Shown one piece after another: positions 15,486 through 22,991 of a stretch of DNA of 43,576 bases (within the stretch, counting starts at the first letter, position 1; each line of letters begins with the position of its first letter). The stretch is taken from positions 1 to 43,576 of the IMG/VR virus record IMGVR_UViG_3300045988_004347; one strand, 5' to 3'. The notes beneath the pieces are model-generated. The model was given only the letters and a program-made list of their open reading frames with translations, ran no database searches and was not told the DNA's origin. A program made the position numbers and the translations under genes. This DNA comes from a virus.

Positions 15486-15592
15486 CTCCTTACGGGATAG
15501 GCTTTTTAGGTCGTTGCCGTGACCGCCCCGCCTGCACTTTTAGGCTTGCAGATAGCCAATTTTTGTATAAAATCCGCATCAGCGGTTTTTAC

Positions 15593-20078: not shown

Positions 20079-21261
20079 GCAAACGCACCGCCTTCTTCCC
20101 GGTGAACTTCTCCCACCGGTCAATGATTACATCGGCATACTTTGGATCATACTCCATGCAGAAAGCGTGTCTGCCATTCTGCTCCGCTGCCATAATCGTC
20201 GTGCCGGACCCAGCAAACAGGTCAAGAACATTCTCTCCCGGCTTACTTGAGCACTGCATCTGGTAATCAAACAGCTTAATCGGTTTCATGGTCGGATGCT
20301 CCGCAGATTTGACAGGCTTATCAAAATTCAACACGGTTGTCTGCCTGCGGTTCTTGAAGAAATAATGCTTCTTCCCTTCCGTCCAGCCGTACAGGCAAGG
20401 TTCGTGTGCTTCTTCTTCAATCTCGCTCTCACCATACAGGCAAGGCTCATGTTTCCACTGGAAATCCTGTCTCCCCATCACAAGGGAGTTTTTCACCCAG
20501 ATCAGGCACTGCCGGACACGCAGCATCGCATCTCTGCACGCGCCTCGGAAGTTATACCCCTCGCTGTCTGCGTGCCAGATGTAGAACGGAGCACCTGGTT
20601 TCATAACCATCGCCGCATTGGAAAACGCATCCGTTAGAAACCGTCTAAATGCCGTATCCTCCATATTGTCGTTCTTAATCTTCCCGGCGGTGCCCTGATA
20701 GTCCACATTGTACGGAGGGTCTGTGAGCAGCAAATCCATTTGTGCCCCCCCCACGAGCTTCTGTACGTCTGCCAAAGACGTGCTGTCTCCGCACATAAGG
20801 CGATGGTCTCCAAGCTGGTACACATCGCCAAGTTTGCTCTTCGGCTCTGCCGGTAAAACAGGATCGTAGTTGTCCTCTACAACTGACGTGTCGAGCTCAT
20901 CACGCAGCCCCCAATCAAAGTCAAACGCCGACAGGTCAAGACCAGGCAGTTCATCAGCCAGCAGGTCAAAGTCCCAGTCGCTCTCGTTGCTCTTGTTATC
21001 CACCAGCCGCAGGGCGTTCACCTGCTCCGGTGTCAGATCGTCCACGCAGACGCAAGGCACTTCTTCCATGCCCAGCTTCTTTGCCGCCATAGCGCGGCAG
21101 TGGCCGATAACAATAACACCCTCTTGGTCAATCACAATCGGCTGCACGAACCCGTACTGTTTAATGCTTTCGGCCACATTGTTGATTTGCCGTCTGTCGT
21201 GCTTCTTGGCATTTGCAGCATACGGCATAATATCCGCCAGCCGCTTGTTTTTTACTTCCAT
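20068..21261 (-). CDS. ParB-like nuclease domain fused to an N6/N4 DNA methyltransferase
   Basis: Start is MEVKNKRLADI at 21261 (AAAGGAGG RBS). The ParB-N-like segment is ESIKQYGFVQPIVID...GHCRAMAAKKLG. The MTase motifs are LLLTDPPYNV and DLFAGSGTT. Confidence 0.85.
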   Translation of the reverse strand: MEVKNKRLADIMPYAANAKKHDRRQINNVAESIKQYGFVQPIVIDQEGVIVIGHCRAMAAKKLGMEEVPCVCVDDLTPEQVNALRLVDNKSNESDWDFDLLADELPGLDLSAFDFDWGLRDELDTSVVEDNYDPVLPAEPKSKLGDVYQLGDHRLMCGDSTSLADVQKLVGGAQMDLLLTDPPYNVDYQGTAGKIKNDNMEDTAFRRFLTDAFSNAAMVMKPGAPFYIWHADSEGYNFRGACRDAMLRVRQCLIWVKNSLVMGRQDFQWKHEPCLYGESEIEEEAHEPCLYGWTEGKKHYFFKNRRQTTVLNFDKPVKSAEHPTMKPIKLFDYQMQCSSKPGENVLDLFAGSGTTIMAAEQNGRHAFCMEYDPKYADVIIDRWEKFTGKKAVRLHDD

Positions 21262-21654
21262 GTGGCCTCCTTTGCCTGACGCACCGGCCTCCCACCACTG
21301 GCCTTTGTCATTGGCACGTCTGTACCCGGCTTTCGCCTCGCCTGAAGTTATTTTTACACAATCGGTCGGGTGCCACCACGTATCCATACTATCCTACACA
21401 GCGGCTTTGTCCTAAGACAACCGCCACCACACCACATCCACGCCTCGGAGTTCTCTCAAGCGCGGTGGTACCCAGACCAACCACGGAACTTTTCAGCCCT
21501 GCGCCGGTACGTCGGTCGCATCCGTTCATCTTTACAAAGCCGGTGCCAGCCAATACATAAATTACTTCGTCCTGCCGCTTTCGTACAGCGCACAGGAAAG
21601 ACCACTTTCGCAGGCTTACGCTCCGTGCGGCTGCGAGGCAAGAGGTCACGCCTA

Positions 21655-21731
21655 TGGCACGGACAGTTGGGAATTGAACCCACCACACACGGTTTTGGAG
21701 ACCGCGTCGCCACCTTGGTACATGTGCCCGC
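21655..21731 (-). tRNA. tRNA-Trp(CCA)-like element with non-canonical features
   Basis: 77 nt. The 7-bp acceptor stem GCGGGCA/TGTCCGT has two G-U pairs, followed by G-CCA. The anticodon arm is GCGGT-CTCCAAA-ACCGT. The T arm GTGGG-TTCAATT-CCCA(A)C carries one bulged A. No convincing D stem could be found. Confidence 0.5.
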
Positions 21732-21784
21732 ATATTTTTCCCTCCGGGCGGAGCCGAAGCCCCGCCCATCAGGAAAAGAAGGGG

Positions 21785-21828
21785 GAAAAGAAAAAGAATG
21801 GAGATGCAGAGTTTGCCCCTGCATCTCC
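21785..21828 (-). terminator. Intrinsic terminator after the 77-aa HTH gene
   Basis: Perfect 10-bp stem GGAGATGCAG/CTGCATCTCC, then ATTCTTTTTCTTTTCC on the minus strand. Confidence 0.75.
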
Positions 21829-21882
21829 CATGATAAAGTGCGTTTTTTCAATTTTTCCACTTTTAAGTGGAATTTTCAAAAT

Positions 21883-22116
21883 TTATTTTTCGGCAATATC
21901 TACCACGCAGGGATAGTCCGTCCTGCCCATCAGATAGTCCACCGACACGCCAAATTCATCCGCTATGCTCTTCAGCGCGTCCATCGTCGGCTTTGCCGTC
22001 CCCAGCTCGTACCGGCGTATGGCATCCGAATTCAGCCCGCAGCGCTCCGACAGTACATACCGCTTCAGTCTCTTTCTCTCCCGCAGCTTTCTCAGCCGTT
22101 CCGGGAATTCGCTCAT
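21883..22116 (-). CDS. XRE-family HTH protein (77 aa)
   Basis: Start is MSEFPERLRKLRERKRL at 22116 (ATGA overlap). The helix-turn-helix is LSERCGLNSDAIRRYELG. Confidence 0.7.
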   Translation of the reverse strand: MSEFPERLRKLRERKRLKRYVLSERCGLNSDAIRRYELGTAKPTMDALKSIADEFGVSVDYLMGRTDYPCVVDIAEK

Positions 22117-22325
22117 GTCAGCACCTCCTCCGGGAAGAATGTCTCCCGCACCCCGCCGCACTCCGCCACGATGTACCGCCCCTTCGGATGCACATACACC
22201 ACAGTGCCCTTGCGGATGGGAAACCGCTTTTCATCGTTGGCACCGGATCCGGGGTACTCGCTCGGCAGCGTCATAAACCGCGCCCGGATCACATCACCCT
22301 TCTGCATCGCCGCCTCCACCTCCAT
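22113..22325 (-). CDS. Hypothetical protein
   Basis: 70-aa ORF. The more likely start is MQKGDVIRARF at 22307, after GGAGGTGGAGG. Confidence 0.55.
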   Translation of the reverse strand: MEVEAAMQKGDVIRARFMTLPSEYPGSGANDEKRFPIRKGTVVYVHPKGRYIVAECGGVRETFFPEEVLT

Positions 22326-22424
22326 AGAATACGTCTATCTCAAGTTCGTGCCCTCTATACCCCGGCCCGCCATCACCAGGGGGCCATGTCGGTATGCTGT
22401 ATCTGTATCTTTCACAGCATCCAT

Positions 22425-22991
22425 TTACTTCTCCTCCACTTCGTTCCCCCAGCAGTCCCAGCCGTCCGCCTGTTGGCGGGCAAACAGTTCGATGCGGGGC
22501 AAATGCCCATACATGGTGTCGATTCTTTCTCTGATCTTTGCTGGTTTCTCTGAGTGTCTCCCCAATTTCTCGCTTAAAAACTGCCGCACATTTGTTACTG
22601 CCCGCTTTGGGATTCTGCCTTTTTTGAACGCCAAACATAATTCGCATTGGCTCAAGGTATAAAAGCCGTAGTTGGTTCTCTGCTTATCCCACACAAAGGC
22701 TACCGTTTTATACTCAAATCCCCATGATTTGCCCAATTCTATGGCAATATCCAAATTGGGGCTGGTCGCCCACATATACAGCAAGCAATCGTCTGCACCG
22801 ATTTTGTTCACTGGCAACGCCTTCAGTTCATCCAACGTCATGGTGGGGTAATGTTCATTTACGCCGTTCTCATATTTTTCCCCTTCATCGTAATGTTGGA
22901 AATTCATTTGCTTTTGCCTATAAGCCCACGGTGGATCAGCGTAGATGACGTTGTACTTCTTGTCCGTGATAAAAATATCCACCACTGCCAT
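22425..22991 (-). CDS. MT-A70-family DNA adenine methyltransferase
   Basis: ATG at 22991 is 7 nt after AAGGAGG. The catalytic DPPW is in NVIYADPPWAY, followed by ...HSEKP.... Confidence 0.85.
   Translation of the reverse strand: MAVVDIFITDKKYNVIYADPPWAYRQKQMNFQHYDEGEKYENGVNEHYPTMTLDELKALPVNKIGADDCLLYMWATSPNLDIAIELGKSWGFEYKTVAFVWDKQRTNYGFYTLSQCELCLAFKKGRIPKRAVTNVRQFLSEKLGRHSEKPAKIRERIDTMYGHLPRIELFARQQADGWDCWGNEVEEK

Follow-up and report, generated by a model that had tools for sequence, protein, structure and literature searches.

A conserved structured RNA joined to a tRNA-like element in an accessory cassette of gut Clostridia phages

Here we describe a non-coding cassette in the IMG/VR viral sequence IMGVR_UViG_3300045988_004347 (positions 1 to 43,576; this whole stretch of 43,576 nucleotides, nt, is hereafter the window). 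Between positions 21,262 and 21,882 the window contains a gap without genes, in which a transfer RNA (tRNA)-like element, hereafter the handle, is followed without any spacer by a structured RNA of approximately 303 nt. The initial annotation of this gap, made from the sequence itself, had proposed as its first reading a phage tRNA-like gene with an adjoining large structured RNA, and this reading is supported by the conservation and covariation of the RNA and by its constant junction with a tRNA or tRNA-like element. A lack of conservation or covariation among related phages had been named as grounds for abandoning the idea; both were found. The region almost certainly holds a real, conserved structured RNA family, and this class of RNA is widespread, structurally complex and not catalogued in Rfam. 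We further consider it reasonably probable, taking the mechanism proposed below as a whole, that the gap represents an accessory two-part cassette (21731-21352), in which the handle would recruit tRNA processing to the RNA joined to it. The two parts are:

21655 to 21731, minus strand: tRNA-Trp(CCA)-like handle, 77 nt, with acceptor, anticodon and T arms, G73 and an encoded CCA
21352 to 21654, minus strand: conserved structured RNA, ~303 nt (element position n corresponds to window position 21655 - n)
21352 to 21360, minus strand: conserved 3' tail of this RNA, UGUGUAAAA, formed by conserved columns in the element alignment

Extent, distribution and fold of the ~303-nt RNA

Conservation begins at the first base past the CCA of the handle (21654), runs to the tail UGUGUAAAA (21360-21352) and then drops. 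A structured stretch of about 390 nt had been annotated after the tRNA-like element, and structured RNA is indeed found there, but the estimate overshot the 3' end by about 85 nt. A GGC-GAAA-GCC hairpin attributed to the stretch is present (21337-21328) but falls within these last ~85 nt, which belong to the conserved leader of the ParB-methylase gene downstream of the gap and not to the conserved RNA. The annotated CCUG/CAGG stem with its CGC-UGUACGAAA-GCG hairpin is present and covaries.

Among GenBank phages, BLAST returned just two matches, both unannotated human-faecal contigs with 87% and 80% identity to 21657-21387, and in both the conserved stretch starts exactly past the CCA of a tRNA-like element lying upstream; cultured or annotated phages with the RNA were not among these GenBank matches. 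Two exact 22-mers of the RNA occur in 88 and more than 120 IMG/VR contigs, chiefly from the human gut, and a hidden Markov model search recovered 173 near-full copies in IMG/VR gut phage contigs, one per locus. The core was found in only 4 of 185,579 species genomes (one per species), which are metagenome-assembled genomes of Oscillospiraceae, Oscillibacter and Eubacteriales, and the RNA is therefore one of gut Clostridia phages rather than a housekeeping RNA of their hosts.

The fold was built from individual folds, alignments and covariation. From 5' to 3' it consists of variable hairpins, P3, an AU-rich linker, P4, a three-way junction of P5, P6 and P7, and a 3' domain under P8, placed in the window as follows (element positions in brackets):

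21571 to 21596 (59-84), minus strand: P3 hairpin; its loop GUACG (21586-21582) is one side of a kissing loop
21538 to 21551 (104-117), minus strand: P4 hairpin GGCUG-GCAC-CGGCU, nearly invariant
21483 to 21525 (130-172), minus strand: three-way junction P5, P6, P7, ACGGAUGCGACCGACGUACCGGCGCAGGGCUGAAAAGUUCCGU, of nearly invariant columns
21511 to 21507, minus strand: P6 loop CGUAC, the second side of the kissing loop
21494 to 21491, minus strand: P7 loop GAAA, a GNRA tetraloop, with a GUAA variant in relatives
21361 to 21481, minus strand: 3' domain under the long helix P8 (174-194 with 275-294), which encloses hairpins P9 and P10

In the alignment of the 5' half, 95.9% of the cells are paired, compared with 36-44% when partners are slid, 13 pairs are changed on both sides, and the observed covariation value was reached by none of 500 shuffles. 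Within this half, six of the nine pairs in helices 1-2 (P3) are changed on both sides, while P4 has 96% of its cells paired. The 3' domain gives a similar picture, with 85.8% of cells paired versus 34-46% when slid and 16 pairs changed on both sides; its interior carries the conserved purine-rich strands GAGGCG, GGNGUGG and GUGUAGG. P8, the closing helix of 15-22 bp, exists in 13 distinct arm classes, and the duplex energy is -28.0 kcal/mol with an arm's own partner versus -14.2 kcal/mol with an arm from a different lineage. Further, the loops of P3 and P6 are complementary in every lineage even though their sequence differs by lineage, in at least six compensating versions (GUACG/CGUAC, GUAUG/CAUAC, GUGCA/UGCAC, GCGC/GCGC, CGCACA/UGUGCG, and CUGCAU/AUGCAG), and a match of at least 5 nt was found in 136 of 139 sequences, compared with about 10% of mismatched partners. 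This covariation would fit a kiss within one molecule as well as a kiss between molecules. When divergent groups were aligned with MAFFT, the first ~55 nt and the inner part of the 3' domain came out misaligned, and an all-versus-all covariation screen, which yielded many spurious pairs arising from group structure, was used as a lead only. An internally deleted copy of 150 nt (L004 2871-3020, and L016) has lost the invariant core but still has about 83 nt from the 5' end and about 63 nt from the 3' end.

As an alternative to a structured RNA, the region might encode a protein, namely one of two arginine-rich open reading frames (ORFs) drawn in the gap (21389..21769 and 21456..21860). Stop-free frames do cross most copies of the region, with a median of 117 codons. 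However, the window is generally rich in long spurious ORFs on both strands, and neither of the two ORFs in the gap has a Pfam match or a ribosome-binding site. Among 141 distinct copies, the indels are mostly frame-breaking (lengths modulo 3 of 1, 2, and 0 in 397, 249, and 60 cases), and the substitutions are compensatory in RNA helices. The annotation had already described both ORFs as Arg-rich and lacking a ribosome-binding site, and given the frame-breaking indels and the lack of a Pfam match we reject the coding reading as effectively refuted. Very long spurious ORFs also run antisense to real genes in the window, for example one of 430 amino acids at 21370-22662 on the plus strand, which spans the gap and the upstream HTH gene; therefore, ORF length alone is uninformative in this genome.

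The tRNA junction and the exchange of handles and cargos

The handle has an acceptor stem of 7 bp (GCGGGCA/UGUCCGU, including two G.U pairs), an anticodon arm CGCGG-CUCCAAA-CCGUG with a 5-bp stem and the loop CUCCAAA, and a T arm with the loop UUCAAUU and one mispair in its stem. It thus has the acceptor stem, 7-nt anticodon loop, T arm, and discriminator with CCA of a canonical tRNA, but it is without a Watson-Crick D stem, as AUGUACCAAGGUGGCGA gives no D stem of 3-4 bp. ARAGORN called zero tRNA genes in the whole window, and in the cmscan search of the window the tRNA family RF00005 stayed below its gathering score; the best Rfam match of the region, seen with permissive thresholds, was tRNA-Sec (34.1 bits, E = 8e-5, under the gathering score of 47). 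The tRNA-like element had been described as 77 nt long with a good acceptor stem and CCA, a CUCCAAA anticodon arm and a T arm, but no convincing D stem, all of which we confirmed, and the doubt expressed about its identity as a tRNA was justified, since it is atypical, has no ARAGORN call and is sub-threshold in Rfam.

The Trp-like handle occurs in two subclasses that differ by compensatory changes in the acceptor and anticodon stems, with the anticodon loop and G73 fixed. An annotated counterpart is a pseudo-tRNA(UGG) of Bacillus phage Mater, a Bacillus megaterium myovirus (KM236245; L003 994-1070), which is 87.5% identical to the handle over 55 nt and has the same odd D region; no cargo RNA, as we call the RNA that follows a handle, is found after the pseudo-tRNA in Mater. 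The likeness suggests that there may be a distinct, conserved, atypical type of tRNA-Trp in Firmicutes phages. The compensatory changes together with the shared D region indicate that the handle is under selection and is possibly still a Trp tRNA, yet not a standard one.

The handle of the window is one of several classes, and every class, in all lineages, ends with NCCA directly ahead of the RNA. In 138 of 167 copies, a canonical T arm with CCA ends 0-3 nt before the start of the element (21 nt in one group with a 5' extension), and the other 29 mostly belong to one class that has an acceptor stem and NCCA with an unusual T loop. In 49 loci a bona fide tRNA precedes the RNA (Gly, Trp, Met, Ile, Ser, Arg, Thr, and Cys); in the remaining loci the partner still has acceptor, D and T arms, with an anticodon arm that is aberrant, hypervariable or has been replaced. 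On the other side of the RNA, a next tRNA begins 3-13 nt past the modelled element end (42-44 nt in three loci) in 33 loci; this element end itself falls within the tail or just past it. Two divergent copies sit exactly between two tRNAs, and in larger phages the RNA lies within tRNA arrays.

The commonest handle class, GCAGACG...CGUCUGCACCA (L002, L057, L001, L183, L185), has normal acceptor, D and T arms and an anticodon arm that is hypervariable in sequence and length, which ARAGORN reads as Gly-ccc, Gly-tcc or Ile-aat; some copies have 5-nt anticodon loops or long inserts. Other tRNA-to-tRNA spacers of about 250-275 nt (L001 1161-1412 and 1906-2181) are conserved in 25 and 48 loci at high identity over partial alignments, match no Rfam family, and possibly represent additional RNAs flanked by tRNAs.

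IMG/VR loci with a related ParB-methylase, a protein up to 98% identical to that of the window, carry the RNA in only 6 of 80 cases. One relative shares both the left flank (terminator and UUCG hairpin) and the right flank (21346-21262) with the window but has a different handle followed by an unrelated RNA of about 110 nt; another has the window's own Trp-like handle followed by that other RNA; and a third carries a tandem of two handle-cargo units. Both flanks are present in 50 loci, mostly fetched because they contain the RNA; the cassette between the flanks ranges from 186 to 1655 nt there, and all but one listed example have a tRNA-like 5' end. Since the RNA is absent or replaced in closely related phages, some of them with the same flanks, it forms part of an accessory, swappable cassette. 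There is no protein family that all loci share within 5 kb of the RNA.

Two further cargos were recognized, and neither has an Rfam match by cmscan. The second cargo begins with AAAGCGG, contains ..GGCAAUGGCAUAGCGCC.., is about 70-110 nt long and was found in 60 IMG/VR contigs. Its start lies directly past the handle CCA (L221 2266-2416, L229 2307-2415, L187 about 2290-2440); it shows compensatory changes between variants and takes the position of the window RNA in close relatives. The third cargo, with the motif G.GGCCGGGUAGCRCCCGGACAAUGUGAGACCGUU.. and a length of about 185 nt as judged by eye (L187 2021 to about 2200), occurs in more than 120 IMG/VR contigs and lies directly after the handle CCA in 101 of 122 copies; it is sometimes in tandem with the 300-nt RNA, upstream of which it is found in L094, L099, L103, L120, and L140. 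As two unrelated cargos share the junction, the junction is a property of the handle and not of the ~303-nt RNA.

This last result bears on the possibility that the RNA is a self-cleaving ribozyme, which would cut its own 5' end just past the CCA and thereby either mature the tRNA 3' end, as has been proposed for theta ribozymes, or set its own 5' end. The zero spacing between CCA and RNA in all lineages fits such an activity, catalytic RNAs typically have such a size, an invariant core and tertiary contacts, and there is precedent in the theta ribozymes, which resemble hepatitis delta virus (HDV) ribozymes and lie directly 3' of phage tRNAs in mammalian-gut Caudoviricetes (PMC10879173), being likewise structured gut-phage RNAs placed right after tRNAs. 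However, two unrelated shorter RNAs share the same junction, the first nucleotides past the CCA vary (UAGG, GAUG, AUGC, CAUG, CGCC), and the 5' ~55 nt, which form simple hairpins, are the least conserved part of the RNA. Neither HDV, hatchet, glmS, twister, hammerhead nor any other Rfam ribozyme matched at E <= 10. Moreover, the tRNA partner is often decayed where the RNA is still conserved, and serving the tRNA is therefore not the purpose of the RNA. Theta ribozymes are also small self-cleavers of the HDV fold, a nested double pseudoknot beginning at the cleavage site, mostly from phages of Bacteroidota, whereas the window RNA is about five times larger and folds differently, and only 4.5% of the theta-associated tRNAs encode CCA (PMC10879173). 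We reject a theta ribozyme on size, fold, CCA status, and host phylum, and consider a self-cleaving ribozyme of any kind quite improbable.

Exchange at the junction might alternatively reflect an element that acts as DNA, in which tRNA-like sequences serve as recombination or attachment sites (attP-like, or as portable homology) and the adjacent DNA is a passenger. The CCA junction is exactly where handles and cargos are reshuffled, recombination remnants are present, and in 32 loci a tyrosine-integrase-like ORF, recognized by eye and not by a Pfam scan, ends about 410 nt upstream. Against this, the compensatory changes keep the helices and the kiss in the sense of one strand, which amounts to selection on RNA and contradicts a role purely as DNA; the orientation does not change with respect to tRNAs and neighbouring genes; and a role of the handle in recombination leaves the invariant 45-nt core unexplained. 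Such an explanation is therefore very improbable.

A further alternative is that the RNA acts in cis as a leader of the late operon, either through processive antitermination, as put or EAR RNAs do, or by stabilizing or regulating the late mRNA, with no free RNA acting in trans. The initial annotation had listed a structured late-operon leader among its readings, and this fits the position in the window, where, as in about 40 relatives, the RNA lies between a promoter-like site and terminator on one side and the ParB-methylase, terS and terL genes on the other, all on the same strand. There is no terminator after the RNA, and in other contexts, too, the adjacent genes run in its direction. A leader role is at odds with the copies that lie between tRNAs elsewhere: in larger phages with tRNAs on both sides, the RNA would be cut off from any downstream message. 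In addition, phages with ParB-methylases up to 97-98% identical lack the RNA or have unrelated RNAs in its place, and therefore the late operon does not need it; the strong terminator, too, is located upstream of the RNA rather than downstream. We thus regard a purely cis-acting leader as unlikely.

Several variations on the cassette were observed in passing. Many relatives (L020, L022, L050, L051, L072, L079, L189, and others) have an extra 80-125 nt of conserved non-coding sequence between the RNA and the ParB leader, with at least three recurrent endings, such as ..UGCGGGGCACAUAGCUCACGGCGGGAAC and ..AAUGUGUCCCAGGGAAGAC, which may represent further small modules; compared with these relatives, the window has a minimal cassette. 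A recombination remnant located about 45 nt past the 3' end of the RNA (L134, L125, L154) consists of the duplicated 3' end of another variant ahead of the downstream tRNA-Gln, and in one second-cargo locus a fragment of the 3' domain of the RNA is joined via GCACCA to the second cargo.

Proposed processing and relation to known RNAs

Taken together, we hypothesize that the cassette is processed as a tRNA-punctuated transcript. It would be co-transcribed with its neighbours, as part of the late-operon leader in the window phage and of the tRNA array in larger phages, and the acceptor/T-arm 'top half' of the handle would be recognized by the tRNA-processing enzymes of the host. RNase P might then cleave at the 5' boundary of the handle, and likewise at a following tRNA if there is one, while tRNA 3'-end maturation might take place at or near the CCA junction, so that processing would free a stable RNA or at least set its ends. 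RNA ends would be expected at the handle 5' end, at the CCA junction and near UGUGNAAA, giving a species of about 300 nt or about 380 nt. The RNA may then act in trans via its nearly invariant three-way-junction core, shaped by the loop-loop kiss and the long helix. As it is dispensable and swapped among near-identical phages, its role is probably accessory, for example in host takeover or counter-defence.

Comparable tRNA-punctuated units are mascRNA-MALAT1, the tRNA-miRNA units of gammaherpesvirus-68, and the stable RNAs within the tRNA cluster of phage T4, in which a tRNA or tRNA-like structure serves as the RNase P or RNase Z signal that sets the ends of an adjoining non-tRNA RNA. These units involve eukaryotic, viral-nuclear or small RNAs, whereas the cassette has a 300-nt RNA of complex fold in a bacterial virus and combines several handle classes with at least three cargo types in a modular way.

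Another precedent is YrlA, an RNA of bacteria and phages whose tRNA-like module is cut by RNase P with the 7-bp acceptor stem as the determinant, and whose tRNA-like domain was proposed to provide protection from nucleases (PMC4201824). By analogy, the tRNA-like module of a non-coding RNA may be a substrate of RNase P. YrlA and other Y RNAs resemble the cassette in being non-coding RNAs of bacteria or phages that carry a tRNA-like domain. However, this domain is internal to the YrlA RNA of about 100 nt, which binds Ro60 (Rsr) and has rsr as a neighbouring gene, while here it is a separate 5' module with its own CCA. Within 5 kb of the RNA there is no conserved protein, its neighbours in the window are the HTH and ParB-methylase genes, and no Rfam Y-RNA model matched.

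The region had also been likened to GOLLD and ROOL, an analogy that holds for the context but not for sequence, fold or membership. Those RNAs are often found near tRNA islands, and GOLLD is sometimes covalently linked to tRNAs (PMC12286853); a location in phages or prophages near tRNA genes is thus common to all three, as a matter of context that does not define the families. They are likewise large, elaborately folded non-coding RNAs of phages and prophages whose function is unknown, have no known obligatory protein partner, and depend on loop-loop contacts for their architecture. By contrast, the GOLLD and ROOL (RF03087) models gave no hit at gathering score in the window or in eight divergent loci, and the region has no match to them even at E <= 10. 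GOLLD and ROOL also differ in being longer (~580 and >800 nt versus ~300 nt) and merely near tRNAs, whereas the window RNA strictly abuts the CCA of a tRNA or handle and is found, unlike them, in gut phages of the Oscillospiraceae type.

More generally, cmscan with all 4227 families of Rfam 15 (including GOLLD, ROOL, raiA, RNase P, transfer-messenger RNA (tmRNA), group I/II introns, HDV-like ribozymes, and riboswitches) gave no match to the ~303-nt RNA at gathering score in the window, in the eight divergent loci or in relatives, and between 21100 and 22000 no family other than the sub-threshold tRNA appeared at E <= 10. The checks recommended in the initial annotation, ARAGORN and Rfam, were thus run and yielded no tRNA or tmRNA call and no family for the structured RNA. 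Together they rule out tmRNA, RNase P, group I/II introns, GOLLD, ROOL, raiA, T-box, cobalamin, signal recognition particle and 6S RNAs, riboswitches and HDV-like ribozymes. By eye, AAGUUCCG and CCGGCUU seemed to resemble the P4 strands of RNase P, which was likewise dismissed, since the order is reversed, no model matched and both segments pair locally. Literature searches by core sequence strings and by topic returned no description of the RNA or of the handle-cargo arrangement, the 3161 unnamed candidates of PMC8040213 being uncompared.

Several points weigh against the proposed cassette mechanism. The fixed CUCCAAA loop and G73 suggest that the Trp-like handle may still work as a tRNA and not solely as a processing signal. 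An encoded CCA is the norm for the tRNAs of these phages (89 of 101), so the CCA at the junction is not itself diagnostic. In Firmicutes, moreover, an encoded CCA is an anti-determinant for RNase Z, which makes it uncertain which enzyme, if any, would cleave precisely at the CCA junction; the handle may remain on the RNA as a 5' cap. All copies were fetched by exact words from the core or the 5' part, so that the invariance of the core is partly built in, although it is also seen in copies picked by the other word. The single-sequence folding energy of the 303-nt RNA is unremarkable (z = -0.48), and the case for the RNA thus rests on comparison and not on thermodynamics; the structural model covers neither the first ~55 nt nor the purine-rich part inside the 3' domain. 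Finally, transcription, processing sites, stability, action in trans and biological role are what we infer from these comparisons.

Going further, and only tentatively, exchangeable handle-cargo cassettes might be a wider feature of gut Clostridia phages, in which the top half and CCA recruit tRNA processing to excise or cap a cargo. The ~300-nt RNA would then be the largest cargo and a new class of complex fold; its junction might bind or inhibit a conserved host factor, for counter-defence or takeover of translation, and the kiss could be intermolecular, leading to RNA-only oligomers like those of ROOL and GOLLD. Large RNAs with an invariant core, tertiary contacts and hundreds of natural variants are rare, and such RNAs have earlier proved to be ribozymes, ribonucleoprotein scaffolds or, recently, RNA-only cages. 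The RNA is abundant in uncultured human-gut phages of Oscillospiraceae-type hosts, and its rich covariation makes it tractable for structure probing and cryo-electron microscopy. The combination of decayed handles with at least three unrelated cargos at one hypervariable locus suggests a general, undescribed way to package and process accessory phage RNAs, and the pattern of the handles suggests that many phage 'pseudo-tRNAs' are processing signals rather than dead genes.

Flanks of the cassette and neighbouring genes

All genes around the gap are on the minus strand. A Pfam scan places an HTH_3 (XRE) gene upstream, with its 3' end at 21883, and a gene with ParB_N and N6_N4_Mtase domains downstream, which starts with the ATG at 21261, preceded by the ribosome-binding site AAAGGAGG, and is followed by a small terminase-like ORF and then the large terminase. 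The gap of about 620 nt without genes is therefore real, being set by the HTH_3 end and the ParB-methylase ATG, and the terminator, UUCG hairpin, tRNA-like element and structured stretch that the initial annotation listed in it were each found where it had placed them. Besides the cassette, the gap contains:

21830 to 21872, minus strand: promoter-like site, with -35 TGGAAA (21859-21854), an 18-nt spacer and -10 TATCAT (21835-21830)
21872 to 21855, minus strand: 18-nt inverted repeat TTCCACTTAAAAGTGGAA, overlapping the promoter-like -35 as an operator would
21790 to 21828, minus strand: intrinsic terminator closing the early (HTH) operon, with a 12-bp stem (21828-21800), a 5-nt loop and a U-tract
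21746 to 21767, minus strand: UUCG-capped 9-bp hairpin, the conserved left flank of the cassette
21262 to 21346, minus strand: leader of the ParB-methylase gene, holding GGC-GAAA-GCC and the ribosome-binding site; right flank of the cassette, outside the RNA family

The strong terminator that had been annotated is borne out by its 12-bp stem and U-tract and by a folding z of -7.8, and it is kept in relatives. Likewise, the 9-bp stem capped by UUCG is found at 21767-21746 with a folding z of -4.3; this hairpin lies upstream of the handle in 42 of 173 loci, alongside differing handle classes. On the right side, the ParB leader is kept in relatives with other cargos, and conservation falls there in the element alignment.

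Promoter-like sites were sought by a consensus scan, which found three where 0.7 were expected and which reports consensus matches only. The sequence at 21830-21872 is kept in the window-like loci of relatives, and its consensus match suggests that it may function as a promoter. Its -10 TATCAT stops 2 nt short of the terminator stem, such that the site is upstream of the stem and abuts it, and transcripts starting from it would miss part of the 5' arm of the stem. With this arm incomplete in such transcripts, the terminator would halt read-through from the early operon without blocking the promoter.

Outside the gap, a GP20-b RNA was found at 15498-15557 on the minus strand (55.8 bits, E = 8e-10), the sole Rfam match in the window at or above gathering score; GP20-b is a known cis-regulatory motif of phage structural genes.

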